Numbered from the stretch's first letter, positions 3,701 through 40,391 are shown. The stretch: 63,962 nucleotides of DNA from Neophaeotheca triangularis (GCA_054600435.1 BAAIJX010000044.1:124001-187962), one strand, 5' to 3'. Notes: generated by a model from the letters alone, not told the origin. Numbers and translations: made by a program.

Positions 3701-4159
3701 TGTTACGGACAACACACGACCAGGACAGGAAGGAAGAGATCATTGGATAAAGACTGAAAGCGCTAACGGCAGGACTCCGAGACTGAGCACACGGAGCTTG
3801 CTAAGAACTGAGCACGCCAAGAACTGAGCAGCCTCCTGCTCAGTAATGCTTAGTTGAACTGATCACTACTGATCAGTCTCGAGCACTGAGCAGCTCCTTG
3901 CTTAGCGACGCTCAATGGGACTAAGCACCACTGATCAGGATGATTAACACGAATCTCTTTTGTATTTAGCTAGCGACATTTCCTAGATAGAGATTTGTGT
4001 TTAACTCATGTTACAATCTTACTGAAAGGTCTACAGTGACACTTCACGTATCTTTGAAATCCTTACGACAAAGGAAACACCCTTGCTAGCCTTCTTCGAT
4101 ATCTCTCCTCTTCCGCTACGAGCTCTAAACCCGTGAGACTACCTTGTAGGATCGCAACA
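3701..4159 (+). repeat. 5' LTR of B
   Basis: Near-identical to 10496-10954; U3 rich in CTGAGCA/TGCTCAG and TGATCA. Confidence 0.97.
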
Positions 4160-4199
4160 CTTTGAATACCCTCTAGGAAAGAGAGATTAATAGGCAAGT

Positions 4200-6419
4200 A
4201 TGTCCCCATCCGATAACCGAGACGCAAGCGTCGCCAGCACTTAACGAGGAGTATCGACTATAACAACTAACAAGGTTACCAAACCGGACTACTTCTATGG
4301 CGAACGCAACAAGCTAGACGACTGGGTCAACCAGATGATGATGTTCTTCCTCATGGAAAGCGTTAGTGAGCAGAAGCAACCTCTCACTGCTGCTTCGTTC
4401 CTTCGAGGAGAAGCTTAACACTAGATCCGCCTAAAGCTTACGGATTTCCTCATGGAACGAATCGACCCTGAAGGACTGTTCTCGAACTGGAAGTCTTTTG
4501 TCAAGGTCATCCGCAACGTCTATGGATTGAGCAACGATCGACAAGTTGCTATCCGAATGATTCAGCACCTCACGCAGAAAACGTCTGCCTCTTAGTACAC
4601 CGCCAAGTTTCAGGAGCACTTAGCCAAGACTGACTAGGACGACAACGCTCTTATGACTATGTACTACCGAGGACTTAAGGACAACGTGAAGGACGAACTT
4701 ATGCGCTACGGAGGCGATTAGTCAACTCTCCCCGGTATGATCAAATCGGCGATCGAGGTTGATGACGCTCTCTACGAACGGTTTATGGAAAAACGCTACA
4801 CTGGACAATTTCGCGGACGAACTGGCTATGCTACCGGCAGCCGGCCTGTCGGTCAGCAACTTCGCGATCCTAATGCGATGGAACTCGACTCCACGTAACA
4901 GCGTCCTAGGAAGGGCAGGGATGGAGGACGGGGCAAACAGAACGCCCTAGGCAAGAAACGGAACGGACCGGAATGCTACAACTGCCACAAGATAGGGCAC
5001 TATGCACGAGACTGCCGTGGGAAACAGATGCGCCTACGCTAGGAGGTCAATGCGATTTTGACCCGACAGGATAACGACTCTCCTACCGATAAGAGCCGCG
5101 GAGCTTACGACATCACCGGAACATACGAAGAACCGGAACACGACGAACTTCACTAGAGGTTTTGCAAGAGGGATTACTGCTTGGTACATAAAAGTTAGGG
5201 ACTAGTGACCAACGGAATACCCATTAGACCTCGGAAGGAAGTGAACGTCATCGAACGAGTTACCCCGAAGTCCGAAACGGACACGCTAATCGAGCAATAC
5301 TAGAAGCTTAGGGAGTTTCACGATGACTTAGTTAGTTATGAAGAGTGGACTGAAGAACACTTTAACCTTATGATCCAAGTAGCCGATCAGATGGCAGATC
5401 TTAACGACAGGATCAAGGCCATAGCAGACGAAGAATCTGAGCAACTACGCAAGCCTCAGAAGGAACTCAACATGATGTCAAGACGCCAACCACTACAGCA
5501 GTCAAGGGACGACGGCAATGCAGCCCGAGGAAGGTCCCTACCTCCATTTGCATAGGAGGACGACAAACTGCAAGAAAACCGAGTACCATCATCGACGATG
5601 GCACTACTAACACCCGACTTAGACAACGAAGAAATATCTTAGATACCGGAACTCACTGCGATCGTACTAACACCGGAGATTAGCCCTTTGAGACTATCGA
5701 TGCCTCTAGAAATTCCAGAATCGCAAGAAGACACGACAGTGACGGATTCCGAAGACGACTCCGAATACGAATACACCGACGATGATGAACCAGACGACAA
5801 CGACGTAGCAGAGTTCATTGTGCACGGACTAAACCCGATTAAGAAAATGGTCATTCACATCGCACGATCGTACGAAGAAGTGTTCCCAATGATCCAAGGC
5901 AAACGACGCTTAGAACCCAACCAATTCGAAGCCATGCTTATGCGATTACGAGCAATGTTCTAGGACTACCGAAAGGTCGCCGTCGAGTATGACGCTGCCA
6001 CCTTTGTCCAGGACAGGCTACTAATGGGAAGCACTTTTCACGGAGAAAACGGCTATATTACGCCAGACGGGATACGAATCCCACATTCTATAAGACAACG
6101 AGTCAAAACAGTCAAGAATCGTTACAGAGAATTCCAGCTCATCTAGGAGCAATAGAGAGAAGAAGAAATCACGCTATAAGAAATGAAGAAGCAAGCACAG
6201 GATTCCTTGGACTAATGGACGATAGTACCACGCGAAAAATTTCTACTACTAGTCGACCGAAAGATGATTCTCGGACACATTAGAGCAACCACACGAGGAC
6301 CTATCACCGCACACGCAATCCAAGGAAAAGTCACGATCAGACCTCGGGACGGACCCCTTTACTAGGAAGTCTCTCTCGAAACAGCGGATTCATCTACCTA
6401 CTTCTCAAAAAACGAATAG
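4200..6419 (+). pseudogene. gag: gag of B (~740 codons, RIP stops)
   Basis: ATG at 4200; KPDYFYGERNKLDDW capsid-type motif; CYNCHKIGHYARDC knuckle at ~4974-5015; same frame as ORFs 5370 and 5688; stop at 6417-6419. Confidence 0.9.
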
Positions 6420-6450
6420 GACCTGTCGCTAAGAGCGAGCGTCAGGAACT
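6407..6450 (+). promoter_or_regulatory. -1 ribosomal frameshift signal (A AAA AAC plus downstream stem) between gag and pol
   Basis: pol is in the -1 frame relative to gag; AAAAAAC at 6407-6413 is followed by cctgtcgct-aag-agcgagcgtcagg; conserved in A and D. Confidence 0.75.
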
Positions 6451-9400
6451 GAACAACACAAATGCTCAACACGAAATAGCATTAGGAACGGTCTTCCGAA
6501 CAACATGTACTGTCGACGGATACGAAACCCTCGCTATGATAGATTCCGGAGCCAGCGGAAACTTTATCTCGGAAACTTTCGTACGTTAGTATGGGCTAGC
6601 TACCTAGAAGAAAACAGATGGCGGGTACGAACTGATGGCCGTGGACGGCTCATTACTACCCGACGTGGATAGCGAAACAGTACCGCTACCACTTGTCTTC
6701 TAAAAGCATCACGAGCGAATTGTCCTAGACGTTGTGCCTATGGCCAGACATGACGTCGTTCTAGGCACTCCTTGGTTAGAACGACACAATCCTACAGTGG
6801 ATTGGAGAAAACGAGTACTCACATTCGACAGGTGTAGTTGCGTCACTACAACCTACCCTGCGCGCCGGCAGCGATCGACGGCAGATGAGAGAAGGCAGAT
6901 CAACGAAACGCATCGCCAATCGACCACGATACTAATACGAATTGGATCGGACTCCACAGGTACCGAACTAGCCTAAACGGACCAACAAGTGAGAGTTGAG
7001 GAAGGAAGTCACGCACCTTCAGATATCCCTAGAGAATTCAGAAAATGGAAGCGCCTTTTCTAGGAAGAGGAAGGAGTAGCCGCTCTACCTAGACATCAAC
7101 TATGGGACCACCGAATCGACATTCAGCCCGGTGCGAAGATACCATGGGGGCCACTTTATGCGCTATCCGAAAAAGAGCTCGAAGAGCAACGACGATGGCT
7201 GGATGAGAAATTGAAGAAAGGATGGATTCGACCCTCTACTTCATCAGCCGCTTCACCACCGTTTTTCGTTCCTAAGAAAGGAGGAAAATTACGAATGGTT
7301 ATCGATTTCAGACGACTTAATGCGATCACCACTAAGAACCGTTATCTACTGCCTAACATCGACGAGATGAGAGATCGACTCACCGGTTCACACTGGTTCA
7401 CCAAAATCGATCTCCGAGATGCATTCTATTCGGTCAGAATGGCAAGGGGGGAAGAGTGGAAAACAGCTTTTCGAACGCGCTACGGACTTTACGAATTCTA
7501 GGTCATGCCTATAGGACTCACGAACGCCCCAGCAACCTGTCAACAACTCGTTAACGACATCCTACGAGACCTACTCGACATTACTGTTATCGCTTATATC
7601 GACGACATATTGGTCTTCACGAAGGGATCACGAGAACAGCATACTAAGGACGTACACGCAGTATTCGAACGACTCGACAAAGTAGATTTCAGGACAGCAC
7701 TAGAAAAGTGCGAGTTCTACAAGAAGGAAGTCGACTTTCTAGGCTTTGTGATTAGCACTACCGGGATCCGAATAGACCCGAAGAAAACTCAATCGATCGA
7801 GGAATGGCCGACACCTAAATTAGTCAAAGACATCCAAGCATTCCTCGGATTAGCTAACTACAATCGGAAATTCGTGAAGGATTACTTAAGGCTCGCTACG
7901 CCTCTGACCAACCTCACGAAAAAGGACACACTATTCGTATAGGGGAAGATCCAACAACAATCCTTCGACAAGCTTAAGGAGTCATGCACGACTGCCCCTA
8001 CGCTAAGGATGTTTGACCCTAAGAGACCTATCCAAATCGAAACCGATGCCTCCGACAGAGCAATAGGAGCTTGCCTCACGCAGGAGGTTGAAAGCAAACG
8101 ACACCCTATCGCCTACTTCTTAAGGAAGATGTCACCAGCGGAACAGAATTACGAGATCTACGACAAAGAACTGCTCGCAATCGTTGCAGCATTGCGATAC
8201 TAGAGAGTGTACTGTAAAGGAGCAACCGGACTGACCATTTACTCGGATCACAAGAACCTACAATATTTCACAACCACTAAGGAACTGTCACGCCGACAAT
8301 GCAGATGGTCAGAGCTACTCGGACAATACAAGTTCGATATAGTCTACACTCCCGGAAAAGACAATGGGCGCGCCGACGCGCTAAGCAGAAGAAGCGACTA
8401 CATGGAAGGATACCTTCTACAGCAACACCGCATACTGAAGGTTAATAAGGACGGAAGCCTAAGCGCCAACCCTCAGGAATTTAACTCAGTACTGCGAGTA
8501 CTTAGGGATGACAACGAAGAATTCCCTGTCGAACATAGGAAGTTCAGGGTTCCGAACGAGAAGGAACGCTAGTGCATCTAGGACCACCACGATGGACCTA
8601 CTAACGGACATCTAGGAATCGCTAGAACGGTGGAACACATTAGACGCAACTTCGTGTTCCCCGGAATGAGACAGAAGGTCTTAGAGTACATCAAGAAATG
8701 TACGAGCTGCTAACGAAACAAGGCTTCAAGACACGCCAAATATGGAAACCTACAATTCTAAGAGCCACCGGATCTACCATGGAACGAGGTCACGATGGAT
8801 TTTATTGTTAAACTACCAAGATCCAAGGACCCGTCGACAAGCAAAGACTACGATTCAATTCTAGTCATGGTCGACAGACTCACGAAGTACTCACATTTTG
8901 TTCCCTGCAACGAGACAATTACTGCAGAAGAACTCGGATATCTCGTTCTCGACAGACTGGTACGATACTACGGCATTCTAACGGTTCTGATTACGGACAG
9001 AGACAAGCTCTTCACATCTAATTACTGGAAGACCTTGATATTAGCGATAGGAGTGAAACACAAGCTCTCGACGGCATTTCACCCCGAAACCGATAGACAG
9101 ACAGAACGCTCAAACCAATCCCTCGAAACGTATTTGCGACATTACGTCAATCACGCTCAGAACAATTGGGTAGCGCTCTTACCTATGGCATAACTCGCAC
9201 TCAACAACAATGCCTTAGAAACGACAGGCTTAACTCCGTTCTATGCAAATTTCGGAAAGGATCTAAACACATTTATGGAACCAAAGCCAGGACCGCTCGC
9301 AGAAAGAGCCCTGTAGACATCTTCGCAGCTGCAAGAAGCACACCAATAGGCGAAGGACAAGATCATATAGTCGCAATAGCGACTCGAGTCACAAAGACAC

Positions 9401-9874
9401 AAGGACTCCAAAACGGCACCTTAGCTTAAGAAGGGGGATAAGGTGTACCTGCTTACGAAAAACCTGAAGACAAGGAGGCGAACACGAAAACTGGACTATG
9501 TCAAAGTCGGACCGTTTCTGGTTAAAGAACAAAGAGGAAAGGTCAACTATCTCCTCTAACTCCCAAGGGACGCCAGAGTCCACCTAGTCTTCCATGTATC
9601 CTTGCTTGAACTAGCAGACGCCGAGACACCAATCTAAGACACCTTTCACCACGATCCACCTAAGGAAGAAGCCGAGTACGAGGTCGAAAAGATTCTAGAT
9701 AAAGATGGTTAGAACTACCTCGTAAAATGGAAAGGGTATCCCACAAGCGAGAACACTTGGGAACCTAAGGACAACCTACTCAACTGCCAGAAGGCCCTGC
9801 AATAATATCGCTAGCACTAAAATTCTAGAAGTCGGCCGAGAGATCAAAACCGCCGTCTAACGCATTCCACGTAG
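6410..9874 (+). pseudogene. pol: pol of B: protease, RT, RNase H, integrase, chromodomain
   Basis: AMIDSGASGNF, IAYIDDILVF, IETDASDRAIG, MDFIVKLP...DRDKLF, YEVEKIL...[17 protein letters not shown]; in-frame TAG/TAA stops of RIP type. Confidence 0.95.
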
Positions 9875-10394
9875 AAGGAGAAAGAATGATCCCCGGACCA
9901 GGATCCAAATCCTCGAGAGGGAGCGTTGCGTTCTCACCCTCCTTCTCCTTCTCTTCTTCCGCCTCGATACTAGCCTCCTCCACGGCTATTGCTTCCGCTT
10001 CTCGTTTCTCTAGAAGATCGAGTTGCCGGCGTAAGCGCTGTTCCTTGGCAAAGGCGGAAGACAAAGCCTCGCGGGCAGCATTTTCAGCCCGTCGAGCCTC
10101 TTCTTCTGCTGCGCGAGTAGAGAGTTGCGCCTCGAACGCTTCCTTGATGGACGACTGGAGTTTCGTCCGCTCCCGCTTCAACCTATCCTATTCCGATGAT
10201 GAAACCTAGAGGTCACACCTCTGACCCCGACGAAGACACTCGCTACACTTTCCCGACCGAATATGGACCCGACACATACGTTTGTGCTTGGAGCACGTTC
10301 CACATGGCTTTACCATATCCTTCCCGTGAGTTTCGACAAAAGTTGCTAATTCGCGACGACGGATGGTGCTGCGGCCAGGCTGGTTGTTAGGCAT
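9780..10394 (-). pseudogene. Antisense accessory ORF of B: Zn2Cys6-like cluster + coiled coil + acidic tail (~204 aa)
   Basis: Track ORFs 10206-10445 and 9825-10181 are one frame broken by RIP stops (CAG->TAG, TGG->TAG; the first two sense codons are intact in copy D). CGTC-SKHKRM-C-RVHIRSGK-CSEC-LRRGQR-C = C-x2-C-x6-C-x8-C-x2-C-x6-C. Confidence 0.85.
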
Positions 10395-10495
10395 ACTGAG
10401 AGGAAACCATGATTCAGCTAAGAAGGAAGAAGTGGGGCGAGCCACGAGACTTATAACGTTAGCGTCGAGACGACGCTAAGCTAGAAGAGGGATAG

Positions 10496-10954
10496 TGTTA
10501 CGGACAACACACGACCAGGACAGGAAGGAAGAGATCATTGGATAAAGACTGAAAGCGCTAACGGCAGGACTCCGAGACTGAGTACACGGAGCTTGCCAAG
10601 AACTGAGCACGCCAAGAACTGAGCAGCCTCCTGCTCAGTAATGCTTAGTTGAACTGATTACTACTGATCAGTCTCGAGCACTGAGCAGCTCCTTGCTCAG
10701 CGACGCTTAATGGGACTAAGCACCACTGATTAGGATGATCAACACGAATCTCTTTTGTATTTAGCTAGCGACATTTCCTAGATAGAGATTTGTGTTCAAC
10801 TCATGTTACAATCTTACTGAAAGGTCTACAGTGACACTTCACGTATCTTTGAAATCCTTACGACAAAGGAAACACCCTTGCTAGCCTTCTTCGATATCTC
10901 TCCTCTTCCGCTACGAGCTCTAAACCCGTGAGACTACCTTGTAGGATCGCAACA
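10496..10954 (+). repeat. 3' LTR of B
   Basis: Direct repeat of 3701-4159, preceded by the PPT. Confidence 0.97.
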
Positions 10955-11627: not shown

Positions 11628-14600
11628 AAACAAATAGGACCTGTCGCTAAGAGCGAGCATTAGGAACTAAACAACATAAATACTTAACACAAAATAGCAT
11701 TAGGAACGGTCTTCCGAACAACATGTACTATTAATAGATACGAAACCTTTACTATAATAGATTCCGGAGCTAGCGGAAACTTTATCTTAGAAACGTTCGT
11801 ATATTAGTATAGGCTAGCTACCTAGAAGAAAACAGATAGTAGGTATGAACTAATAGCTATAGACGGCTTATCACTACCCGACGTAGATAGCGAAACAGTA
11901 CTACTACTACTTGTCTTCTAAAAGCATCATAAGCGAATTGTCCTAGACATTATACCTATAGCTAGATATAACATTATTCTAGGCACTCCTTAGTTAGAAC
12001 GACACAATCCTATAGTAGATTAGAGAAAACGAGTACTCACATTTAATAGGTGTAGTTACGTCACTACAACCTACTCTATATACTAGTAGTAATCGATAGT
12101 AGATAAGAGAAGGTAGATTAACGAAACATATCGCTAATCGACTACGATACTAATACAAATTAGATCGGACTCTATAGATACTAAACTAGCCTAAATAGAC
12201 TAATAGGTAAGAGTTAAGGAAGGAAGTCATGTACCTTTAGATATCCCTAGAGAATTTAGGAAATAGAAACGCCTTTTCTAGGAAGAGGAAGGAGTAGCCG
12301 CTCTACCTAGACATTAACTATAGGACTACCGAATTAACATTTAGCCTAGTATAAAAATACTATAGGGACCACTTTACGCGCTATCCGAAAAAGAGCTCGA
12401 AGAGTAATGATAATAGCTAGATAAGAAAATGAAGAAAGGATAGATTCGACCCTCTACTTCATTAGCCGCTTCACTACCGTTTTTCGTTCTAAAGAAAGGA
12501 GGAAAATTATGAATGATTATCGATTTTAGATGACTAAATGCGATTACCACAAAAAACCGTTATCTACTACCTAATATCGACGAGATGAGAGATCGACTCA
12601 CTAGTTCACACTAGTTCACTAAAATCGATCTCTAAGATACATTCTATTTAGTTAGAATAATAAGGGGGGAAGAGTAGAAAATAGCTTTTCAAACGCGCTA
12701 TAGACTTTACGAATTCTAGGTTATACCTATAGGACTTATGAACGCCCTAGTAACCTATTAGTAACTTATTAACGACATCCTACGAGACCTACTCGATATT
12801 ACTAACATCGCTTATATCGATAACATATTAGTCTTCATGAAAGGATTATGAGAACAACATACTAAGGACATACACATAGTATTCGAATGACTCGACAAAG
12901 TAGACTTTAGAATAGTACTAGAGAAATACGAGTTCTATAAGAAGGAAGTCGACTTTCTAGGCTTTATGATTAGTACTACTAGGATCCGAATAGACCTGAA
13001 GAAAACTTAACTGATCGAGGAATAGCTAACACCTAGGTTAGTTAAGGACATCTAAGTATTCCTCGGATTAGCTAACTATAATCGGAAATTCATGTAGGAT
13101 TACTTAAGGCTCGCTATACCTCTAACTAACCTTATAAAGAAGGACATACTATTCATATAGGGAAAGATTCAACAATAATCCTTCGATAAGCTTAAGGAGT
13201 TATACATAACTACCCCTATACTTAGGATGTTTAACCCTAAGAGACCTATCTAAATCGAAACTAATGCCTCTAATAGAGTAATAGGAGCTTACCTTATGTA
13301 GGAGGTTAAAAGCAAACGACACCCTATCACTTACTTCTTAAGGAAGATGTCACTAGTAGAATAGAATTATGAGATCTATAATAAAGAACTACTCGTAATC
13401 ATTATAGTATTACGATACTAGAGAGTGTACTATAAAGGAGTAACTAGACTAACTATTTACTTAGATTATAAGAACCTACAATATTTCATAACTACTAAGG
13501 AACTATTACGCTAATAATATAGATAGTTAGTGTCGTGGTGACTCCCGTACTACATTTATAGGCGTACTAGTTTTACGGTATTTGCTTTGTCATTACCCCC
13601 TTCACATACCTATACCTCCCCCTACACTAGTACTTATATCTTAGACACCTACCTAGATAGACACATATAGAATAAATTGCGACTACTTGAATTAGCCTCT
13701 ATACACTATGACCGACCTAACTGATTTCTGACCCCTAACGTATTGTTCGTAACCGTTACGAACAATCCCTGATTCTCGACTACACCCGATTCCTAATCCC
13801 GCTACATTATTCATAACCGTTATGAACAATACCTCCCTGAGTAAAACTAGTCTCCCGGCTTCTCGAGTGCTCTTACTACTCGACATTAGAGCTACTCGGA
13901 CAATACAAGTTCGACATAGTCTATACTCCTAGAAAGGATAATAGGCGCGCTAACACGCTAAGTAGAAGAAGTGACTATATAGAAGGACATCTTCTATAGC
14001 AATACTATATACTGAAAGTTAATAAGGATAGAAGCCTAAGCGCTAACCCTTAGGAATTTAACTTAGTACTATAAGTACTTAGGGATAACACTAAAGAATT
14101 CCCTATCGAATATAGGAAGTTTAGGGTTCTAAATAAAAAGGAATACTAGTACATCTAGGACTACTACGATAGACCTACTAATAGACATCTAGGAATCGCT
14201 AGAATAGTAGAACACATTAGACGTAACTTCATGTTCCCTAGAATAAGACAGAAGGTCTTAGAATACATTAAGAAGTGTATAAGCTACTAATAAAACAAAT
14301 CTTCGAGACATACTAAATATGGAAACCTACAATTCTAGGAGCCACTAGATCTACTATAGAACGAGGTCATAATGGATTTTATCGTTAAGTTACTAAGATC
14401 TAGAGACCTATTAATAAGTAAAGACTATAATTCAATTCTAGTTATAGTCGATAGACTCACGAAGTATTCACATTTCGTTCCCTATAATAAGACAATTACT
14501 ATAGAAGAACTCAGATACCTTATTCTCGACAGATTAGTACGATACTATGGCATTCCTATAGTTCTAATTACAGATAGAGATAAGCTCTTCACATCTAACT

Positions 14601-15450
14601 ACTAGAAGACCTTAATTTTAGTAATTAGAGTAAAATACAAGCTATCGACAGTATTTCACCCTAAAACTAATAGACAAATAGAACGCTTAAACTAATCCCT
14701 CGAAACATACTTATGACATTACGTTAATTACGCTTAGGACAATTAGGTAGTACTCTTACCTATAGTACAGCTCGTACTTAATAATAATGCCTCTAAGATA
14801 ATAGGCATAACTCTATTCTACGTAAATTTCGGAAAAGACCCTAACATGTTTATAGAACTAAAGCTAGGACTACTCGTAGAAAGAGCCCTATAAACATCTT
14901 CATAGCTATAAGAGGCACACAAATAGGCGAAAGACAATATTACATAATTATAGTAACGACTCAAGTTATAAAGACATAAGGACTCTAAAACAGCACCTTA
15001 GCTTAAGAAGGGGGATAAGGTATACTTACTTATAAAAAACCTAAAGATAAGAAGACGAACATGAAAACTAGACTATGTTAAGGTCAGACCGTTTCTAGTT
15101 AAAGAATAAAGAGGAAAAGTTAACTACCTCCTCTAACTCCTAAAAGATACTAGAGTCTATCTAGTATTCTACATATCCTTACTCGAACTAGTAGATGCCG
15201 AAACACCTATCTAAGACACCTTCTATCATGATCTACTAGAGGAAGAAGCCGAGTACGAGGTCGAAAAGATTCTAGATAAGGACGGTTAGAACTACCTTAT
15301 GAAATGGAAAGGATATCCTATAAGCGAAAACACTTAGGAACTTAAGGACAACTTACTTAACTATTAGAAGATCCTATAGCAATATCACTAGGAATTAGAC
15401 TAAGGTCCTAAAACTCGTTAGGTAGGCTATCTATCGAAGTCTAAGTAAGA
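11628..15450 (+). pseudogene. pol: pol of A, heavily RIPped, interrupted by solo LTR C
   Basis: Collinear with B pol, differing mostly by transitions; MDFIVKL ORF at 14372; chromodomain at ~15245-15370. Confidence 0.9.
13531..13885 (+). mobile_element. Solo LTR (C) of element-E family inside RNase H region of A
   Basis: 355 bp, TG...CA, 4-bp TSD ttag (13527-13530 / 13886-13889); reverse complement of E LTRs at 28124-28478 and 40037-40391. Confidence 0.93.
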
Positions 15451-28502: not shown

Positions 28503-31500
28503 TCACTCTATAGTAGCCGCGCTACCCTAAACCACTATTGAGTTCTCCTTATCCTACATTTCCTCTATAAGCTCCTCCTATCCTACTAGTATAGCTCCCC
28601 TCTTTCCTTTATCCTACGGTAGTAGAGCGGAGCTAGAACTTTCTAAATAGTAGAACGACTTGTTCTGAAACACCCTTTTCTCTTCGTCTCGCTAATATGC
28701 CTAGGCGAGCTCGTACGCCTTAATAGCGTCATCCCGGATTTCCTGAATATACTTCCGGACGTGATATAGGCTCTCCGTAGTAATAGTATGTAGTACTTAC
28801 TAGATATTAGGGCTCGTATACCGCAATTCGCTAATAGCTACTCTAGATAAGGCATCCTGTACTACTAGATATAGGGTCGCGGGAAATGGTACATGAGGAG
28901 CTCTATACTTAGTAGTGTAACTAGAGACACTTAATAGGCTAGGCACGAAGTCGTGGTGTGTAGTAGTAATGTCGCTCCACTTTCTACTAGCGGCATTCTA
29001 AAGGTACTCATGGTCTCGGTCGATTCCTACGAACTAGGGTAGGATAGTCATGCGTTAGCGAACGGCTTTTGACGTAGTAGTACTATAGGGTAGGCGTGGA
29101 TTAGAAACGCGAACTTCGAAGGCCTTATAAGGGACCGGCTACCACTTTAAACCCTAGGCTAAGAGCTAGTCTTTTAGTAGGTTCGTGTTATCGATAGCTA
29201 TAATCTCTTTCTTATAGTCTAGATTGTTAGCGACAAGGAAGTTCGTCTACTCCTCTAGGCGCTAGTGCATCCCCTTGACCACTATAATGTAGTCATCCTC
29301 GAACTTATTAAGGATACTAATACTACCCTAAATAGTGTACACGCTAGTGCCGTTATTCTATGTAAACACCGGGTTCAAATCGATGTGCCTAAATCTAGTA
29401 GAGTCTCTAGGGTACTAGTTCTTAGTATAATACAGGTAGGATACTAGCTAAAGTAGGCTATTATCGCGTAAGAGAGCATATAGTAAGATCAGTACCGGGC
29501 TCTAGCGAAGGTACTATTGAATTAGGCTGTAGTACATGTTCCTATACTAGCCCTAGTTAGACATGTTGTTTTATAGGTAGACATTATACATACTGAACTC
29601 GCTTTTAATTAGGTCCTTAACCTCTAGTAGCTTAGGGAATAAATCCGGAATGTTAATAGTACCGTTCCTTTCCTATTCTTTACGCTAGGTAATAGTGACG
29701 CCGAGTCCTTCTACAATCCTCGCTTTCTAGTCCGTGTCGAGGTAGCGTATCACGCCGGATTCTACTAGTTTGTACACGAAAGTCTCTAGGTCATTAACGT
29801 CGGCCGAGATCCCTAGTAGACGTTAGACTTCAGTGTTTAGAAACTAGCGGATATAGCTATAAACGATGTTTTTCTAGGATTACTTTAGGAGCTTCGCGAT
29901 ATAGTAGATGTAGTCATTAGTCTTCTTACTATCTTTCCCTTAAATAACTAACCCAAGACTCTATACTACTAGCCTTCGGTAGGTCGCGTACACGCTATAG
30001 TAGTAAGCACTATAGCTAGCGTATAAGTCTATACGATCCCTATCTTCCACGACAATATGGAAACCGGTTCGCTAGTCGTTATTAGCCTTAAGCATAACCC
30101 GTAACTATAGTAAGGCTATCTTGTCTACCTTATATGTGTATCGGCCGCCGTAGAGACTACCGCATGTAGCATTACTAGTAAACTAGGCCACCATGACTAC
30201 TCGGATCTCCTCTAGCGTTAGAGAGGGCAACTCGCTAAGCCGGGGTCCTCGTACTACTCGTGTTAGGGCTATACCTAGGGGTATAGCTAATATGCCTAGG
30301 GGCGGAGCTAACATTCCTACACTAGTAGACCGGGCATGAGTACGAGTACGAAGGGCTAAGGTAGTAGATATAGGTATAGGCGAGGGCTACGGTAGCTAGT
30401 GATATCCCTAGAGCTAGCGACGAAGCTCCTCCGACATAGACACTATAGATACTACATCCTCCTTAATCGTAGACATTAGTAGTATACTAGTGTTTCGAGA
30501 TTGCGGCTATCCTATAGGGCTTAGGGAGATAGTACTAACGAAGCGCCCTTCTCATCGTGGGGTCTCTAGGGCTTTAGGTGTCGTTAGGGTAGCGGGATAG
30601 GTAAGGAAAGAGAGCTAGCTATCCTGTCCTTAGTATAGGGCGTAGTCATTTAGGCGCATCTTTTTATATTTATCGACTAGCTCCCCTACTATGTTCTATA
30701 GCTCGTTAGTAGTCCGCTTAGTCGTAAACTTAGATACCTAGTCTATACCTACTACATGATTAAAGTCGGCCTTAGTGTAGAAGAACGCGTAGAGTAGTTT
30801 CCCTTTTCTACTAGTCAGTTGACTTATAGGAGTTTCCTTAACAAGCCTATGTATAGTCTAGATACTAGTAGTAGCATATAGCTTCTAGAACATCTACTCG
30901 GATGTCTAGGCATATTTAGCGAGATCAACGAATCCCTAGGACACATTCTCTAGAGCCATGAAGATATGGTTAATGGTTTCGGAATTGATGGCTTCGGCGG
31001 CATTGACCGGCCTATACGAAGAGAGGAAGTTCTCCTTTCGAGTAATGTATAGGTTGCAATGGCTATAGGTAGCTATGTCTTTAACCTTCCTAAACTCAGC
31101 TCTTTTCAGGGCCTATATAGGGTCGCTTCGTATATAGTTATCTACTATATATACTAACATGTCCTAGTCTTCGCCTACTTTATGTACTGTCTTAAGTATA
31201 GCGAGCTACGTAGTATCTTAGGCGCGTAAGTTAGTCATAGTAGTGATCTTTTATAGTATCTCCTTTATAGTGTTTTCAAGCTACACTCTAGAAATGCTCA
31301 AGGTGTATCGCTATATGTCGAGTGTTAGAGCTCCCTATTCGCTAGTCGCTCCTTAGGTTTAGTAGATGCTCGACTAGTTAGTAGACCTCGCTACTATAGT
31401 GTTATTAGGCGTAGACGCGGTCGCGGGCGTAGCTAAGGTAGTAGTAGGGCGCGTAGTGGCCTAGCTACTACGAGTAAGGCGAGGGCTTTTAGGAGCTACT

Positions 31501-32210: not shown

Positions 32211-32687
32211 GCATTATTTATAATAGTTACGAACAATGTGACGAGCTCGGCGCGTAACGCTAAGAATTCATAGGGTGAAGGGAGACATTATTCATAACGG
32301 ATGTGAACAATATAACGCGCCCGTAGCGATAACGCTACATCATAGGTTAGTAGTAAGCCTTATTCATAACGGATGTAAACAATGTAACTAGGCCGCGACA
32401 GCGACACTATTATAGGATTCGTAGTGTCGAGCTCAGTATTATTTATAACGGTTACGAATAATGTGACGAGCCTCGTCTACACTACTAGGACTCGCGGTGT
32501 TAGGCCTAGCATTATTCATAACGGTTACGAATAGTGTGACGAGCCTCGTCTACACTACTAGGACTCGTAGTGTTAGGCCTAGCATTGTTTATAATAGTTA
32601 CGAATAATGTGATGAGCCTCATCTATACTACTAGGACTCGCGGTATCGGGCCTAGCATTATTCATAACGGTTACGAATAATGTGGCA
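32211..32687. repeat. Array of 7 palindromic 25-27-bp repeats (CATTGTTCGTAAC-G-GTTACGAACAATG consensus) with ~45-50-bp spacers
   Basis: Cores start at 32211, 32285, 32357, 32436, 32509, 32582 and 32655 (period 72-79 bp). Confidence 0.9.
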
Positions 32688-32690
32688 ACA

Positions 32691-35600
32691 CTAATTTTCA
32701 TTAGAATCTAGGTCCCCAAATTGCTTATACTCTATTAGGTCGTACTAAATACTAGGAATCGAGATGAAACTAGTACTACTCTATCTCGGTACTAGTATAG
32801 TATTAGTAGTCGGTTGTAACCGCTAGCTCCTATGAGGCCCTTCCTATATAGCTAGGACAATGTCCTTAGGGTTAGATACGTTACCTCTAGACATCGAGTG
32901 CTACTCTTCTACTAGGTCTACGTCGTCTTTATCTTATATCGCGAGTGTATTAGGCCTTAGATAGAATAGTTTCAACAGTCGACTAGTATACGGCTTATCT
33001 AGTACTGTCCCGTCAAGCTCCTCGAGATAGTACGAGCCTATATTCTCCTAGACGGTTTTGATGCGATACGGACTAAGCTAGCGAGGGGTGAATTTACGGT
33101 TTGCCGTCATATTAGTATTACGAACCGAGTCGAATAGTAACACTAGATTACCGACATTTAACTACTCTAGCCTTATCTAATAAGTCTTATCGAAGTACTC
33201 CTTGTTGAACTTGTAGTAGTGCTATAAGCGTAGAAGGGCTTTATCTATCTTCTCATCCTAACGTTCGAGCTACTTCATCCGCGCTACTAGTAGGTCTTCC
33301 GTTGTTTAAATGCCGTTCTAGTTAATAGTGTACTAGGTTAGGAATAACAACTCTACTAGTAAGACAGGCTCCTTACTATAGATCACAGCTACTAGAGTTA
33401 TACCGGTAGTAGCTCGTATAGTAGTCCTATTAGCCTAGAGCGCGCTATAGAGTAGGTCTGGCTACGGTCGTCCGGTATCTCGACTCGCTTTAGCTAGCGC
33501 GTTAACGATAGTCAGGTAGCCTCATTCTACTATACTATTAGCTTACGGGTAATATAGCGAGATCATGATGTCTTGGATACTATATCCTTCGAGTAGGACA
33601 GTAGTCTACCCTTAGTTCTCTAGGCCTCTATTATAGACTAGTTTCCCGAACACTCTATGTCTAGTCATGATATCCTCGTAAAGGAAGCGAGCTAGCCCGC
33701 GGCTCTCGGTATTACGTAGTAGTTAGCCTTCTACCTAGCCGGACACGTCTTCCCGGGTAAGGGTAATGTACTAGAAAGTATAGGATTCTAGCATTCATAC
33801 TAGGTCGACAGCTTACTTCCTACCCACTACGTTTATGTAGATAGGGTGTAGTGGTTCTTCTAATCGGTTCTATGCGTATAGCTAACACTCCCTATAGGTT
33901 TTGACATATACTATAATAGTATTGTACATGCCTTCCTACTAGTACCTGTCTACTACTTTCTAGTATGTCCCTTCTCTTCTATAGTGACTACCCTTATCAT
34001 GAAGTCCCTTTATTATCTATAGTCGGTTCTACTCTCCGTCTATCACGCGAGTTAATAGCTAGTTCCTATTCATGTAGCGGAATAGTTAGTCGTTACGGAC
34101 TAGGAATCGTATCGCTTATCGCTTAAATGTCTAGAACTCCGATTTGGATAGGTCTATAGGCCTTCGTATAGTTATGAGCTAGTAGGCGACATTTTGCGAG
34201 TACTTAGAGTAGGTAGAGTTGAGCACATTATCGTTAGTAGGTTCCCCCTCCCTATCGGAAGGAGTCGAAGCTCTATCTTCGTCGCTTACGGGTATTAGGC
34301 CCTATACTAGGAGTAACCCTACTATATAGGTAGACACTCGATTTATGTTACTAGCATCTGTTAGGACCGGCGCTAGGGGTAGCCCTACCGCTAAGGCCGG
34401 TACTCTATTTCTACTAATAGTAGATGTTAGGCCTAGTACCGGGAGTAGCCCTACTACTAAGGTATACGGTTTGTTTTCGCGACTAGTAGGCGTTAGGCCT
34501 AGTCCTAGGGGTAGCCCTACCGAAATGCTGTCGAGATAGACGTTAACCTAGTCGTCGATGTCTTTAGTATTAGTCGGCCTATTAGACTTCTAGGATAGGC
34601 CGTTAGCGATAATGTTTTTCGTACTAGCGATGTGTCGCATGTCGAAATCAAATAGTTAAATCTAAGCTAGCTAGCGAGTTACTATAGTATTTAGCACGTC
34701 TAAGGCAACCCTATTAAGCTAGGTAACTAGCGTGTTAGCGTCTATTTCGACCACAAACCTCGTACCGTAAAGGTATAGCCGTAACCTTTTAAGAGCGATC
34801 ATTAACGCCTAGCACTCGAGCTTAACAGCATCGTATTTCTACTCGCTCTCATTCTAGAGACTACTATCGTACTAGATAACTTGTCTTTTCGCGCTAGCAA
34901 CTTCTTATTATAAGTAAAGTCCCTAGCTAGTACCGCACGTATTAACCATAAGAACTAGTTAGCCTATATCTACGCTATATTTAACTAGGGCCACAATCGG
35001 GAATTTCATTAGCTACTCTTTTAGGTCCGCTATTACTACGACTTGTTCCCGTCTCTAGATAAAAGGTACATCTTTCTACATAAGCGCAATAATCGGTCTC
35101 ATATACTATACAAATCCCTAGATCAACTATTTGTAGTATGTGTATATTCTAATGAAGCTATAAGCTTCGCGTAATGTACGACACTTAGTCTACTTAGCGA
35201 TAGCTTCAACCTTTAAGCGCGATAGCTTCGTACCGTTAGACATATATATAAAGCTGACGACCTCAAGCTCCTTAGAAAGGAAGTGCGATTTCCCTATAGC
35301 GATAGTACATCTAGCTCGCTCCATGTCCGCAAGTAGTTAGTCTAGTTTCCGGATATAGTTATAGACTAGGAGTCTAATACTAGGTAAAGGGTTAGGGTCG
35401 CCCTAGGAGTCACTACGATCGCTAATAGCGATAATGTCATCGACATATGGGATGGCGTCATGTAGATATAGTACTATGAGCATCTACATCATGACTCGGT
35501 AAAAGATGGCTACCGAGTTTATCTAGCCTATTAGTAAGGTTGTCTGCCTTAGGAGCCCTAATGGAGTCATGATGGCTATCATGTCGCGGCTTTCTTCATG

Positions 35601-36750
35601 TAACAGATTTCGTCATATCTAGAGAAAACGTCGTATAGTGAGAGGAGTAGTCTACCTGTAATATAGTAGACGAAGCTTATGAGATCTGGCGGCATTATAG
35701 CATCTCGAACTGTAACCGAATTTAGAATAGTAGCTAAGTTAATTAGCCTATGTTTGCCGTTCTTCTTTTTAACTAGAAACTAAGGATTCTAGTATTGTCC
35801 TTAGCTATACTTAAGGACACCGGCTTTTAGTCAGTCTTCTAACATCTCGACGAGCTCTATAGATAAAGCTTTCGGTATGGGATATGTTTTAGCCTACTAG
35901 GCTTTATGGGGTACCATTCTCATCTTGACTAGAGGGTATATGTCTTCGTAGATTATGCTATACTCCTTGAAATCCTACATAAGTATTAGCTCATAGGCTA
36001 TTAACATCGATTCGAACAGTTAATGTTCTTCTAGTAAGAGCATGATGTCAACTATTACTCCTACTATTCGCTCTAGGGTCAATCTATAGCCCCTTAGCTC
36101 TTATGTGTATTATAGTTCGAAATAGCCATTATACTTAGAGTAAGCGATAAGATCTTTTAGTATGTTCTTAATCTAGCGCTCTATAGCTTTCTTTCGCTAA
36201 TCTAGCTATCTACTAGGAATCTTAGACAGGATAGTACTCGAGTCGTCGATAGACACTACCTTATCCGCCTTTCGTTTAGCTATAGTCATGACACTAAAAT
36301 TCTCCTTTAGTAGTGTAGTAGGATCGGAAGCGAGCGCTATAAGTTCTAAAGGTTATATACTTCGTAAGAGCTTCACACTATTCATAGACATACTCGATCT
36401 CTATATGTAGGAGACTCTACCTAGAGCATTATTCGTAGTAGTTATGAACAATACTCGGTTCCTAGTCGTAGAGTTAGTAGAGTGCCCGGGTCTTACGTGA
36501 CTAGAGGGATTGTTTATAGCGGTTACGAACAATACTCGGGTCCTAGTCGTAGAGCTAGTAGAGCGTATAGATATCACGTGACTAGAGGCATTGTTCGTAG
36601 TAGTTACGAACAATGCTTAGGTCGTCATAGTGTTATTAGTCGCTTTACGAATAGTAGGATTGTTCGTAATAGTTATGAACAATGATTTACTTAGTTCTTA
36701 GTAGGTATCGGTAGTAGCAATCGAACCTACTTGTCTACCCTACCTTTTAA
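32691..36750 (-). pseudogene. pol: pol (RT-RNase H-integrase) of E
   Basis: MAKRKADKVV (~36280), YVDD, HxxxxH...CxxC integrase zinc motif (~33890-34000), DLVHMP...AREDVSGWVEG, RKFTPRWLSPY; at least one small indel. Confidence 0.88.
36426..36684. repeat. Four copies of the same palindrome inside the 5' end of E pol
   Basis: Cores at 36426, 36507, 36588 and 36657 (spacings 81, 81, 69, all multiples of 3); encode LF.T..NN repeats in the RT frame. Confidence 0.85.
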
Positions 36751-39357
36751 CGAATGAATAGAGGATGCGCTCTTATCTACATATACTATATGTATACTAA
36801 CACTATTAAGGGAGAAATGGTCTCTAGCTTTAGAATCCGAGCCTACTAGTCGACGAATTCCTATACTAGGGACAAAGTCTGTAGTCGCTAAACTATCCTC
36901 GCTAGTAACCTAGTAGGTGACTTTACCTAACGGATTCCTCTGAACTTCGAGGGAAGCGCGATAGGCATATAGCTCTCCGAGGATGTAGGGTTTTGATAAC
37001 TACTCTACTACTAGTATTAGTGTACGAATGCCGACTTAGCTGACCTGAACGGGCGCGTTAGGAACCCACTTAATAAAGGTGACCGCATCTCTATTCACTA
37101 CTATAATGCCTAGACTAATAGAAGACGGCAACCTCGTAATTAGTAGTCGAGCGCGCTTAGTAATGTCTCTCGTCATGACATTAACATCCGCGCTAGAGTC
37201 GAGGAGTATAGTTACGTTAGTCTTCCTAATCCTCATCTCGTAGACTAGGGAGTCGTTACGATAAACTAGGTCCTCTCCTATAAGATCATCGATGTCACGA
37301 GCGGTTATATAGAGTAATGTAGTGTTTAATGTAGTAGTATTCCGTTAACGCCTATCGACCGAATCATGAGCTACGGTAATAGTAGGCAACACGGAAGTAC
37401 CTCTAGTAGTAGACTTCTTCGCTTCGTAGGCGAGACGCTATTACGTAGTAGTCATGTCTATTTCTCGCTATATATTATTAGCTAACCCCTTAGGTAGTAG
37501 GCTAAATAGTAGCTTCTAGACACCCGGCATCTTCGCTAAGACGTCTATACGGTTTATAGTAATATCGCTACTAAGGAGTATCTCTAGTATCGTAGCATCA
37601 TCGTACTAATTCCAGATAAGGACATCGAGGAGCTTCGTATGTCTCGAGGCATACTACTTTATCACTAGTAGCGCTAGCCGTTACTAGTCCTCGTCATTAG
37701 TGTCCCTTTCCTCGACTAGCCGATTAATTAGCGAGTCGTAGGGAATAGTCTAGCTTCTCTTATAAGCCGCGCTGTCTACTAGCTTCTCGTACTCGCTAGG
37801 CCTCGTCACATAGACTTTAGGAGCAGCTCGCTTCTTATACACTCTCGTGTCCGGGTCTTGAACTAGCCTTAGGCTAGATCGAGTCTACATTAGATATAAA
37901 GAGGCGTCGTCCTCGTCCTTAGAGGTGTCGGAATAGGATAATAGAGGGAGTGTAGTTATAAAGCGAACTACGGGCCCTTACGTAGCGATAGGCACGAACT
38001 AGTTCTCGTCCTATTCAATCTTCTACTTAATAGTATCGAGCCGGTTTTCCCATAGAAGCCTTTAGAGTTCATCTCCCGGGTTCTAAATAGATCCCTATTA
38101 GATGCGTTTACTACTTAGGTTAGAGTACACGAGTCCCTTATTAATAAGCTCGAGAAATCCGGGGTAAGTCATCTATCTATATAGGCCGCTACACATAAAG
38201 CAGCCTCCTAGCGCCGTTCTATAGGTAGTATTAGGAGCGCCATAACCCTAACCAGGATAGTATATATAGTTGTTAAAATTAGAGGTAGTAGTAGTAGGGG
38301 CGTAAGTAGACTGTTCGGGAAAGGAAGGTTATAGAGCTACCTAGAAGACATTAGTCATAGTACTAGCTAGAATGTTAGACATGGTAAATCTATAGTAGCC
38401 TACATTCTTAACCATAATAGCTAGGTCTATAGCATTCAACTTGAGCGTCTTAAACTTAGCCACTAGTTCGTCTATTTCCTTTTTAGAGGTAGGCTATTTA
38501 GGGAAATTAGGTATAGGACATCCTTTACTCCCGAAAGCTAGCGCTAGGAATGCCGTAGTAGGGACTAGCGTATACACGATAGACTTCTCGCTAGTCTCTA
38601 TATAGGCTATCGCGTTATGAACTAAATTTAACATCTCTAAGGATTAGTTAGTATAGACCTTATCCTCGATAGCCCTAAATAGTTATCAGTACTCGATAGA
38701 CTCGCTAGGTATAAGCGGATTGATCTAGAACTACTAGATGAGACGCTCTTATAAGTTCTAAGGCAAACTACGGAGGAAGTACTTTACAATCTCTAGTCCC
38801 CTAAGAGGGTACCCCTAATCTTTAGCCTTATAGACAATGCTCTCGAAACCGCGAACATACTCTAGTATCCTATTTAGATAGCTAGTAGCTTTACTCTTAG
38901 CCACGAAACCTACGAGTACTTCTATACTTCTAGTAAGCTACTCTAAGTCGAAATCCCTGAACTTGACCTTTATAGTAGCGAAGATATCTACTAACGAGCC
39001 ATTATACTTGAGGTCCGATACCTAGGCCTAGACCTCGTCGCTAATGTAGCTGTCGAGTAGTTCGGCTACGCGATAGGAGTCGAACCTAAACCGCACGCAC
39101 ATCTTCTTATACTTCCGCATAAAGCTCGTAAGGTTACTACTATCGAAGTAGGCTACCCTAGACTCGTAGGGGCTCGGGGGAGGCGCTATAATCACATACC
39201 CTAGGGTATTAGTAGGACGCGATAGTAGGGACGCCCTAGGGCCGTCCCTACTAGATCCTAGAGTGAGCGCGGGGGTAGATAGTGCTAAGGAAGTAGTAGG
39301 CCCTACGTCCTATATGTCTTCTAGGGTAAGGGAAATATCGAGAGGGGAGTTAGACAT
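36727..39357 (-). pseudogene. gag: gag-protease ORF of E
   Basis: ATG at 39357 in frame with the protease LLDS(G)ADVNVM (track ORF 37036-37236); pol begins in the -1 frame near ttaaaag at ~36745. Confidence 0.8.
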
Positions 39358-40036
39358 ATTTTTGGTTATTTGTTCAGTTTTCTAGAAATAGTGATAATAG
39401 TGAGGCGGCATAAGTAAAACAGTAGAATCTTAGAACATATAAGTAATAGACTAAGTAAGGAAGCTGAGAATGTAAGCGATGTTCTTAGTAGTGAATTTGC
39501 GAAGTTGATCTTAAGTAGTACCTTGTAGTCTTTCTTCGATCTATAGCCGAGATGATATCTTTTCTCTACTAGAGGTCTTAAAGGTCCGGATTCTCTAGTG
39601 CTATGTAGAAGGTTTACCTCTATTAAAATGAGACGAGCGTCGTTATAAGGGACTCTAGCCTCCGCATTTTTAAAGCTCTATTGAGTTTTCAGCGATAATA
39701 CTAAACAGTCCGAAACCTTATGTAGCGTAGACAACCGTATCTAGGCTAAGTAGAACAGTAAGGGCGAGGAAAGCTAAAGTAGTAAGTAGTAGTCTAGGTT
39801 GTCTAGAAGCCGCTATCGTCGTTTCGTTAGGATAGGAGAATAGTAGGATAGAGTAGTAGGTTTCTTAGGGTTAACTATAGCGCTACTATCGCGTTATCGA
39901 GTCCCTTTTCTAGTCCCCTTATCGAAGGGTAAGTTCTATAAGTTAGGCAGTCTTATAGTAGGTATAATTCCTAGAGCGTGGGTTCGGCTATTAGGACGAA
40001 GACAATATACGATCGCCCTACCTTCGGCTCTAAATA

Positions 40037-40391
40037 TGTCGAGTAGCGAGAGTACTCGAGAAGCTAGGAGACTAGTTTTGCTCGGGGAGGTATTGTTCAT
40101 AATAGTTATAAACAATGTAGTGGGATTAGGAATCAGGTGTAGTTAAGAATTAGGGATTGTTCGTAATAGTTACGAATAATGCGTTAGGGGTTAGAAATTA
40201 GTTAGGTCAGTTATAGTGTATAGAGGCTAATTCAAGTAGTCGCAATTCATTCTATGTCTCTCTATCTAGGTAGGTGTCTAAGATATAAGTACTAGTGTAG
40301 GGGGAGGTGTAGATATGTGAAGGGGGTAATGATAAAGCAAATACCGCAAAACTAGTATGCCTATGAATGTAGTATAGGAGTCACCACGACA
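40037..40391 (-). repeat. 5' LTR of E
   Basis: 355 bp, TG...CA, followed by TSD ctag at 40392-40395. Confidence 0.93.

Follow-up and report, generated by a model that had tools for sequence, protein, structure and literature searches.

We analysed 63,962 nucleotides of DNA from Neophaeotheca triangularis (GCA_054600435.1 BAAIJX010000044.1:124001-187962; this whole stretch is called the window), in which long terminal repeat (LTR) retrotransposons carry extra genes together with reiterated short motifs. The left 42 kb has a GC content of 0.35-0.49 and consists of nested LTR retrotransposons; from about 42 kb on follows ordinary gene-rich DNA with a GC content of 0.52-0.57. The element map, built from self-comparison of the window, contains three copies of one family (A, B and D) and an element of a different family (E). 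They are dead copies of two Ty3/gypsy lineages, mutated by repeat-induced point mutation (RIP), and each lineage carried an accessory gene of its own (Table 1). In A, B and D this gene is antisense and encodes a putative zinc-cluster protein. Its pairing with a block of octamers in the U3 region of the LTR is real and conserved, and is the main subject of this report.

An antisense gene conserved in a chromovirus lineage

A pattern search of the window for the Zn2Cys6 arrangement of cysteines gave a strict match at 10215-10304 on the minus strand of element A and a relaxed match at 20132-20221 on the plus strand of element D. Another strict match at 44109-44201 is a stop-ridden simple repeat (CVC*ACVC...) in the GC-rich gene region, arose by chance and is unrelated. 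In A the open reading frame (ORF) starts with an ATG at 10394 and sits between the chromodomain-like end of pol and the 3' LTR. Using intact relatives as query, tblastn found the antisense gene in all three copies. Among 5.8 billion proteins searched there were 1797 candidates, 99 of which are related at E<=1e-3 (best 1.5e-52, 60% identity); most are 160-211 amino acids (aa) long, and two bear the UniRef title 'Zn(2)-C6 fungal-type domain-containing protein'. Four relatives have an organism named by the sources: Elsinoe, Sporormia, Bathelium and Friedmanniomyces, that is, Dothideomycetes and lichen fungi. Many more derive from metagenomes.

A metagenome scan using the antisense gene provided 52 related loci (L001-L052). 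Among the 24 loci of at least 4 kb, 15 have a long opposite-strand ORF (pol) whose end either overlaps the gene's end or lies no more than about 80 bp from the gene; the remaining nine show no long ORF at that place. One locus, L006, is a complete element with gag (Retrotrans_gag, zf-CCHC) and a pol gene encoding protease, reverse transcriptase (RT), RNase H, integrase, SH3 and chromodomain, of which Pfam recognises RVT_1, RT_RNaseH, Integrase_H2C2, rve and Chromo. Identity of the window pol sequences to L006 pol is 61% for A (over 1136 aa), 56% for D and 47-48% for B. With LTR pairs, a target-site duplication (TSD) and pol homologous to this chromovirus pol, A, B and D are Ty3/gypsy elements.

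Intact antisense genes were compared by the Nei-Gojobori method, two loci being dropped because of stops. The ratio of nonsynonymous to synonymous substitution rates (dN/dS) was 0.04-0.12 in the six pairs with unsaturated dS, out of 12 computed. The antisense gene is under strong purifying selection. Taken together, homologues, convergent pol and dN/dS make it a real, selected part of a chromovirus lineage, and the 99 homologues and the dN/dS values rule out a chance open frame as its origin.

Two further observations concern these loci. Between the polypurine tract and the antisense ATG the window has a 7-bp stem with a TCC(C/T) loop at 10459-10479. At the same place a stem-loop occurs in 38 of the 52 sequences L001-L052, compared with 11.7 +/- 3.1 (maximum 19) in 200 shuffles, and pairing is kept by at least ten different stems, e.g. 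AGCTTCG/CGAAGCT, AGCGCTG/CAGCGCT and TAGCGTC/GACGCTA. The structure could act in the sense RNA beside the polypurine tract or, in the antisense mRNA, within the 5' leader. A TATAAG-like box is also seen here, near which an antisense transcript would be expected to start, between the polypurine tract and the ATG. Moreover, eight loci (L001, L004, L005, L011, L012, L015, L029 and L043) are contigs of 6.3-7.4 kb whose ends are identical or nearly so over 123-174 nt. Their appearance is that of entire elements assembled into circles with a single LTR, either from collapsed repeats or from circular DNA.

Predicted structure of the antisense protein

The aligned proteins consist of a conserved basic N-terminal helix, a six-cysteine cluster, a long heptad-like helix and an acidic aromatic tail (LSPSTW...EFW). 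In alignments of 20 and 64 sequences, cysteines C31, C34, C41, C50, C53 and C60 show either no variation or conservation of at least 90%, and their spacing CX2CX6CX8CX2CX6C fits the Zn2Cys6 consensus CX2CX6CX5-12CX2CX6-8C. The AlphaFold (AF2) model, with a predicted local distance difference test score (pLDDT) of 82.8, shows the cluster region followed by one 77-residue helix. When this model was compared with the PDB by Foldseek, the best 11 matches, and 21 of the 33 listed, were Zn2Cys6 DNA-binding domains, all at E values of 0.37 or worse. They include Hap1, Pho7, Leu3, Gal4, Ppr1, Put3, AlcR and Cep3; for the Gal4 structure 1aw6 the root-mean-square deviation was 1.4 A over 30 columns.

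Homodimer modelling, which ran without the alignment, gave a score of 0.42 against 0.00 for the best control, with contact agreement between runs of at least 54% and a partner pLDDT of at least 73. In a benchmark on microbes, 21 of 30 solved homodimers and none of 23 single chains came up to the mark. Of 29 eukaryotic cases 17 did so, but only one of the seven that lack an older solved relative, so that the pass obtained here may reflect memory of the predictor. The model supports homodimer binding but is no demonstration of it. Predicted contacts (residue 86 with 107, 97 with 97 and 76 with 114, i+j about 190-194) describe an antiparallel helix pair, an arrangement that would put the two clusters at opposite ends. 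As modelled, the protein has the anatomy of a dimeric zinc-cluster factor.

A promoter-proximal octamer block in U3

The heptamer CTGAGCA occurs 19 times in the window compared with 5.69 +/- 2.45 expected, a number reached in none of 100 shuffles. Five copies lie in each A LTR, three in the D LTRs and two inside elements (5437, 21255). Counts of 7-mers in up to 700 bp upstream of the gene in the related loci identify it as one form of an octamer, ACWGAKCA. The forms found are CTGAGCA, CTGATCA and CAGAGCA, and in AT-rich loci CTAATTA, the transition product of CTGATCA. In 30 of the 39 usable loci, those in which 300 bp or more precede the gene, three or more octamers fall within 150 bp at a distance of 130-300 bp from the ATG. 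Octamer density upstream of the gene is 9.2/kb (227 in 24,685 bp) versus 0.69/kb elsewhere (130 in 189,695 bp). A second cluster occurs in only three of the 24 loci that have 3 kb or more of other sequence, and each time it is the other LTR copy. The window itself gives a similar picture once RIP transitions are allowed for: each of the six A, B and D LTRs contains 8-11 octamer sites, with densities of 18-24/kb in the four LTRs computed versus 0.6-3.8/kb in the two internal regions measured. An earlier reading of the window, made from the sequence only, had paired a Zn2Cys6-like antisense gene with CTGAGCA arrays in U3, and this holds: the gene is found in three of three copies and the block in most gene-bearing loci. 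The same reading had taken the motif to be dispersed across the element; instead it is confined to U3.

The arrangement around the block is fixed. In sense direction the related loci show the LTR start TGTTAC, about 100-150 bp of further sequence, CACGTG, the octamer block, 15-30 bp, TATATA and the conserved GTGTTCAACTC. In 14 of the 16 U3 sequences compared, the sites nearest TATA share one orientation and those farther away have the opposite one. With this fixed layout beside the TATA box, the octamer block belongs to the sense promoter as a promoter-proximal module, and the copy in the 3' LTR is also the nearest upstream element of the antisense gene. Of 52 rows, 24 have one or more CACGTG boxes upstream; CACGTG is presumed to be a host basic helix-loop-helix site that stays constant while the octamer changes. 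Both motif types show it immediately next to the octamer block (e.g. at about 515-525 in L006). The B LTRs show a 56-bp tandem duplication of 1.9 copies (1786-1893, 16133-16241), whose units, ACTAAGTA/TACTTAGT, contain RIP-type derivatives of the octamer.

Variation of the octamer with the protein

We compared motif type with a tree of 52 proteins, comprising 50 of the loci together with A and D; L036 and L051 were excluded as partial matches. Motif type follows the protein clades: a clade of 25 rows, which includes A and D, has CTGAKCA, and clades of 14 and six rows have CAGAGCA. A small outer group shows mixed motif types. Among the 41 typed rows, Asn follows the fourth cysteine in 18 of 19 rows with CAGAGCA and in none of 22 with CTGAKCA. 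The positions next to Cys4 and Cys5 read Ser/Leu in the CTGAKCA type, to which L006 belongs, and Asn/Asn in the CAGAGCA type, to which L029 belongs. The flanking CACGTG and TATA are unchanged across both octamer variants.

Gene and promoter block also appear to move together. In a comparison of A with B, similarity extends over pol (82-84%) and over R-U5 (89-90%). No alignment is obtained for what lies between pol's end and the TATA box, namely the gene and U3. The non-aligning segment corresponds to 9815-10741 in A and 15392-16256 in B. Judged from this comparison, gene and promoter block look like one swapped, exchangeable cassette. Such behaviour is required by a cognate pair, but adjacency alone would also give the same.

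The antisense protein as a putative regulator of its own LTR

These results can be brought together in a model in which the A/B/D protein, a small Gal4-like factor with a long dimerising helix and an acidic tail, would bind the ACWGAKCA block next to TATA in U3. In the 5' LTR the bound protein would tune transcription of the element, with activation slightly favoured over repression. The copy of the block in the 3' LTR is 130-300 bp upstream of the antisense ATG, and the protein would in addition regulate its own divergent promoter. Protein and octamer block would then form a self-encoded pair of factor and operator. We consider it an even call whether the antisense protein is such a dimeric DNA-binding regulator of the element's own LTR, and we put the chance that it binds the octamers at about one half. 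Self-regulation had been one of two proposals of the sequence-only reading. Conserved pairing, purifying selection and the predicted factor anatomy sustain it for A/B/D, and it stays unproven.

Several findings weigh against the model. The octamer has no CGG triplet, and the usual half-site of zinc-cluster proteins is of the CGG type. Pfam Zn_clus (PF00172) scores 12.6 bits (E 0.15), under the gathering threshold of 21, and matches at E<=1 in only six of 20 members (best 0.097). When PDB sequences were searched with the family profile, nothing but coiled-coil noise came up, led by Gfh1 at E 0.011. No strict cluster was found in nine of the 39 usable loci; these are mostly AT-rich RIP products with forms such as CTAATTA, but L032, L040 and L046 are not obviously so. 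Because all 52 loci were retrieved via the antisense gene, the sample consists of gene carriers only. Motif type changes only twice on the tree, leaving two independent contrasts in the same direction (sign-test p = 0.5), and gene and U3, being adjacent, are inherited and recombined together anyway.

Alternatively, the octamers may be ordinary enhancer sites of a host transcription factor, as CACGTG probably is, and the zinc-cluster protein may act elsewhere, for example on host genes, chromatin or nucleic acids in replication. The block is located just upstream of TATA and beside CACGTG, where upstream activating sequences for host factors sit, and it lacks the CGG preferred by zinc-cluster proteins; the protein's Pfam score below threshold and a co-variation of only two independent events, expected from linkage, fit as well. 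Against this explanation, the presumed host sites CACGTG and TATATA stay constant while the octamer switches with the protein clade of the element, and the octamers cluster upstream of the gene in most gene-bearing elements with nearly none in the rest of the sequence. We know of no host factor with the octamer as its site. On balance we regard a host-factor site as rather unlikely, and continue with a self-encoded regulator as the preferred reading.

A dioxygenase gene and palindromes in element E

Element E has an LTR pair and, on the minus strand only, Pfam matches to RT_RNaseH and Integrase_H2C2, which place it among Ty3/gypsy elements; Pfam detected no chromodomain in it. Its pol shares 23% identity with L006 pol over 184 aa, so E represents a distinct Ty3/gypsy lineage.

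ORF3 of E keeps one frame with many stops, and Pfam assigned no family to the window copy even at E<=10. An exhaustive phmmer search yielded 386 relatives with E<=1e-3, the number with E<=1e-30 being 36 (best 2.2e-43); most are of 800-1000 aa, with the match spanning the last ~330 residues. Intact relatives are proteins of about 900-1000 aa with a PhyH-type Fe/2-oxoglutarate (2OG) dioxygenase domain. PhyH (PF05721) itself was matched weakly in four of ten relatives (E 1.3e-4 to 2.6e-3), two of which just reach the 22-bit cut-off. The motifs CxC...CxxH and FRHxD...PHG...RRT are conserved, and the iron triad and the 2OG-binding Arg (H620, D622, H720 and R730 in the numbering of the intact relative P0100) are at least 90% conserved among intact relatives. 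In the P0100 model (pLDDT 81.7) a disordered linker joins a helical N-domain to a large C-terminal one. For the C-terminal domain 168 PDB chains matched at E<=1e-3, and all 30 listed are Fe/2OG enzymes of the PhyH clan or related to it, headed by DUF1479/YbiU/GIG2, SptF, proline hydroxylase, EvdO, GriE, SnoN, PrhA and EctD. A TET/JBP-, AlkB- or JmjC-like enzyme was considered and rejected, as none is among the 30 matches listed. The N-terminal domain of P0100 gave no usable match in the protein atlas.

Members of the ORF3 family are spread over Pezizomycotina, among them Rhinocladiella, Coccidioides, Sclerotinia borealis, Xylona and several lichen fungi, and many relatives lie on contigs of 9-13 kb, approximately the size of E. 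Fused pol-ORF3 proteins were absent from 2663 longer candidates, which is weak evidence. Blastomyces dioxygenases (PMC4595289) are ordinary metabolic enzymes and have no bearing on ORF3.

The palindrome of E measures 25 bp. Its RIP-tolerant pattern TTGTTCGTAAC-G-GTTACGAACAA has 17 sites in the window compared with 0.03 expected: two in each E LTR, seven and four in two internal arrays, and two in a solo LTR. The sequence-only reading had counted 15 palindromes in E, two per LTR and seven before ORF3, next to a Cys/His and dioxygenase gene; the counts are exact and the motifs of the protein are conserved in its relatives. The four copies it had placed inside pol are present, and their place is between protease and RT. 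The 81-bp unit of this array is exactly 27 codons, and the array could therefore be read through in the polyprotein; the 73-bp unit of the other array cannot. A search of viral_contigs for relatives of E returned 24 pattern matches with the protein profile, none of them confirmed, and none with the exact 23-nt palindrome.

In the model for E, the third gene of the lineage, on the sense strand, encodes a PhyH-type Fe(II)/2-oxoglutarate dioxygenase, and the palindromes in the LTR, before RT and before ORF3 are reiterated cis-modules that most likely serve a dimeric factor as sites or act as RNA hairpins. The dioxygenase of ORF3 and the palindromes are both real, and nothing tested links them. 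Weighing against the model for E are the loss of the second catalytic His in the window ORF3, which keeps RHID, the lack of any recognised DNA-binding domain in the window copy or its relatives, and the fact that E is a single copy in the window.

The palindromes may have nothing to do with ORF3, being paired sites of a host factor of the high mobility group (HMG)-box type or hairpins of the genomic RNA that were multiplied by tandem duplication. LTR, 81-bp units and 73-bp units have only the palindrome in common, and its centre varies. The least-mutated copies fold as hairpins of 11-12 bp (-10.5 and -16.8 kcal/mol, z = -4.0 and -8.7), and the LTR copies, in sense orientation, lie in the 3' third of the LTR and may thus be transcribed. 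That no DNA-binding domain is recognised in the ORF3 family also agrees with this possibility. The outer arms CATTGTT...AACAATG may correspond to the HMG-box (SOX/MATA-HMG) core, which is the reason for considering a factor of this type. Against the possibility, two of the four folded palindromes, after RIP, are no better or barely better than shuffles. We judge palindromes unrelated to ORF3 to be somewhat short of an even chance.

Anti-silencing and the parallel between the lineages

The sequence-only reading had further proposed that both lineages follow the same logic, with accessory protein and motifs forming an anti-silencing system like VANC/VANDAL. Both do carry an accessory gene and motif copies; beyond this, the parallel of E to A/B/D is one of analogy only. 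On this reading both accessory proteins would be sequence-directed factors that keep their own element free of DNA methylation or of trimethylation at lysine 9 of histone H3. The E palindromes are indeed tandem-repeated in non-coding spacers and occur in three places, the A/B/D octamer blocks differ between related elements, the E oxygenase shares a broad fold class with demethylases, and passages of two papers report other dioxygenases borne by transposable elements (PMC9289625, PMC12730594). However, no test speaks for anti-silencing of this type: the A/B/D motifs are limited to one promoter-proximal block by TATA and CACGTG, the structures closest to ORF3 are PhyH-clan hydroxylases that act on small molecules and amino acids, with no TET/JBP, AlkB or JmjC enzyme in the list of 30, and all window copies were inactivated by RIP-type mutation regardless. 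We therefore consider VANC/VANDAL-type anti-silencing improbable. A still wider scheme would give both lineages private, sequence-addressed control: a fast-diversifying zinc-cluster factor of the chromovirus would be swapped together with its octamer operator as a single cassette, each subfamily activating or keeping open its own LTRs only, and the E enzyme would be brought to the palindromes, in the form of DNA sites or RNA hairpins, and strip a repressive mark from the element's chromatin or RNA, as a counterpart of VANC-type anti-silencing in a fungal retrotransposon. This scheme is speculative, and we give it little credence. Anti-silencing and the E parallel remain conjecture.

State of the copies and feature coordinates

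The longest open frame in any element is 146 aa, and every ORF in the window is broken. Contigs from public runs of the same organism contain many further element copies. Those of run X1 differ from the window by C>T at 86 and G>A at 70 places and by any other change at no more than 21, an excess that is the signature of RIP. Both stops of copy A are sense codons in contigs of run X2.

In runs of the source organism the summed contig depth, which is not equivalent to copy number, is about 10x higher over R-U5 (10750-10954) than over U3. One X2 contig joins 10503 to 10742, skipping the octamer block of A, and loose contig ends at both places of A's 3' LTR run into other sequence. The depth step and the skipped U3 suggest many LTR subfamilies with a common R-U5 but different U3.

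Table 1. Retrotransposons of the window and their component parts.
Feature	Position	Strand	Remarks
Element A	3701-10954	+	LTR pair 98.3% alike; 5-bp TSD TAGTG at 3696-3700 and 10955-10959
Element B	1693-3700 plus 10956-16472	+	LTRs 93.9% alike; older copy, A inserted in B
Element D	19508-26696	-	Third A/B-family copy; 84% identity to A over 7064 bp
Element E	28126-40391	-	353-bp LTRs, 92.9% alike
A 5' LTR	3701..4159	+	TG..CA ends
A 5' LTR octamer block in U3	3782..3937	.	9 strict ACWGAKCA/TGMTCWGT sites; 11 with RIP transitions
A gag-pol	4200..9805	+	Stops interrupt frame
A antisense accessory ORF	9826..10394	-	189 codons, 2 stops; six-Cys cluster, long helix, acidic tail
A hairpin (7 bp) and polypurine tract	10459..10495	.	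Conserved; between antisense ORF start and 3' LTR
A 3' LTR	10496..10954	+	Octamer block at about 10577-10732, 180-340 bp upstream of antisense ATG
B 5' LTR	1693..2121	+	56-bp tandem units, octamer derivatives of RIP type (ACTAAGTA); 10 RIP-tolerant sites
B antisense ORF remnant	15363..15953	-	33-36% identity to intact relatives (tblastn)
B 3' LTR	16041..16469	+	Self-comparison
Solo E-family LTR within B	13528..13892	+	2 palindromes (13743, 13807)
D 3' LTR	19508..19948	-	Octamers RIP-damaged
D antisense ORF remnant	20042..20632	+	Relaxed cysteine pattern and tblastn
D 5' LTR	26256..26696	-	Self-comparison
E 5' LTR	40039..40391	-	Palindromes at 40093 and 40157
E gag-protease frame	36691..39789	-	LLDSSADVN; Pfam peptidase match weak (E 0.087)
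E palindrome array, 4 copies	36429..36682	.	81-bp (27-codon) tandem units, between protease and RT
E RT-RNaseH-integrase	32694..35800	-	Pfam RT_RNaseH 1.4e-11, Integrase_H2C2 1.7e-6
E palindrome array, 7 copies	32214..32680	.	Tandem units of about 73 bp, between integrase and ORF3
E ORF3 wreck	28481..31421	-	About 980 codons, many stops; PhyH-type Fe/2OG dioxygenase relative
E 3' LTR	28126..28478	-	Palindromes at 28180 and 28244

Comparison with known systems

The general view is that LTR retrotransposons rely on transcription factors of the host. Encoding a regulator of one's own LTR is characteristic of complex retroviruses. If the model for A/B/D is true, many fungal chromoviruses would regulate themselves through a selected zinc-cluster gene and a lineage-specific operator block, the antisense gene sitting in a promoter-adjacent cassette of a widespread fungal chromovirus lineage. 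Two natural specificities with two octamers would then offer a testable system for the diversification of control among transposon subfamilies. The dioxygenase lineage of E is a second, unexplained case of an enzyme borne by a retrotransposon. In the literature searched, with subscription papers lying outside the search, we found neither a zinc-cluster factor with cognate LTR arrays nor a PhyH-type gene in fungal retrotransposons.

As a layout, the antisense arrangement is not new. It has a precedent in brtn, which was reportedly described by Zhao et al. in 2011 in Boty-like elements of Botrytis cinerea and Sclerotinia. According to passages of three papers, brtn is an antisense extra gene (aORF-3R type) between pol and the 3' LTR of Boty-like Ty3/gypsy elements, antisense extra genes are also found in plant elements, and their function is stated to be unknown (PMC8365987, PMC7264820, PMC4227169). 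A/B/D agree with this in being a fungal chromovirus with an antisense ORF at the same place that is conserved among copies. The comparison is one of layout only, and none of the four A/B/D relatives with a named organism comes from Botrytis or Sclerotinia. The passages in question mention neither a zinc cluster nor cognate LTR motifs (PMC8365987, PMC7264820, PMC4227169).

With Gal4-type Zn2Cys6 factors (Gal4, Hap1, Leu3, Ppr1, Put3, Pho7, AlcR) the A/B/D protein shares the cysteine spacing, a predicted dimerising helix after the cluster and an acidic aromatic C-terminal tail, and these factors are the nearest matches listed to its predicted fold, at E values of 0.37 or worse. Unlike these factors it has only about 190 aa, no middle homology region and a sub-threshold Pfam score, is encoded by a retrotransposon and has a candidate site without CGG. 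The coiled coil of Gal4 is parallel, whereas the predicted A/B/D dimer is antiparallel.

Element-borne dioxygenases are known in other settings. Passages on Phalaenopsis describe Ty3/gypsy elements with an ORF for an active AlkB-type 2OG-dependent dioxygenase (2-ODD) that demethylates N6-methyladenosine (m6A) in RNA (PMC9289625), and fungal DNA transposons are described in part of another paper as encoding TET/JBP (PMC12730594). Like these elements, E carries its own Fe/2-oxoglutarate dioxygenase as an extra gene; unlike them, its ORF3 is of the PhyH type and fungal.

For VANC21/VANDAL21 of Arabidopsis, the relevant passages report that target motifs form tandem repeats and differ between related transposable elements, and that VANC, encoded by a plant DNA transposon (VANDAL), causes loss of methylation throughout the element (PMC5735166). 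A/B/D likewise combine a protein encoded by the element with motif repeats that vary between related elements. Unlike in VANDAL, the motifs form a single promoter block, and the system is known here from sequence alone.

Retroviruses provide the remaining comparison. Foamy-virus Tas, Tax of human T-cell leukaemia virus type 1 (HTLV-1) and the antisense basic leucine zipper factor HBZ of HTLV-1 regulate the LTR of their own virus. The A/B/D gene is like HBZ in being antisense, in adjoining the 3' LTR and in encoding, by prediction, a coiled-coil protein of DNA-binding type, and it is like Tas in the repeated sites in U3. Unlike in these three cases, the protein is an unrelated one, the carrier is a retrotransposon without env, and the evidence comes from sequence. 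By analogy, the A/B/D system would resemble a retroviral transactivator more than VANC.

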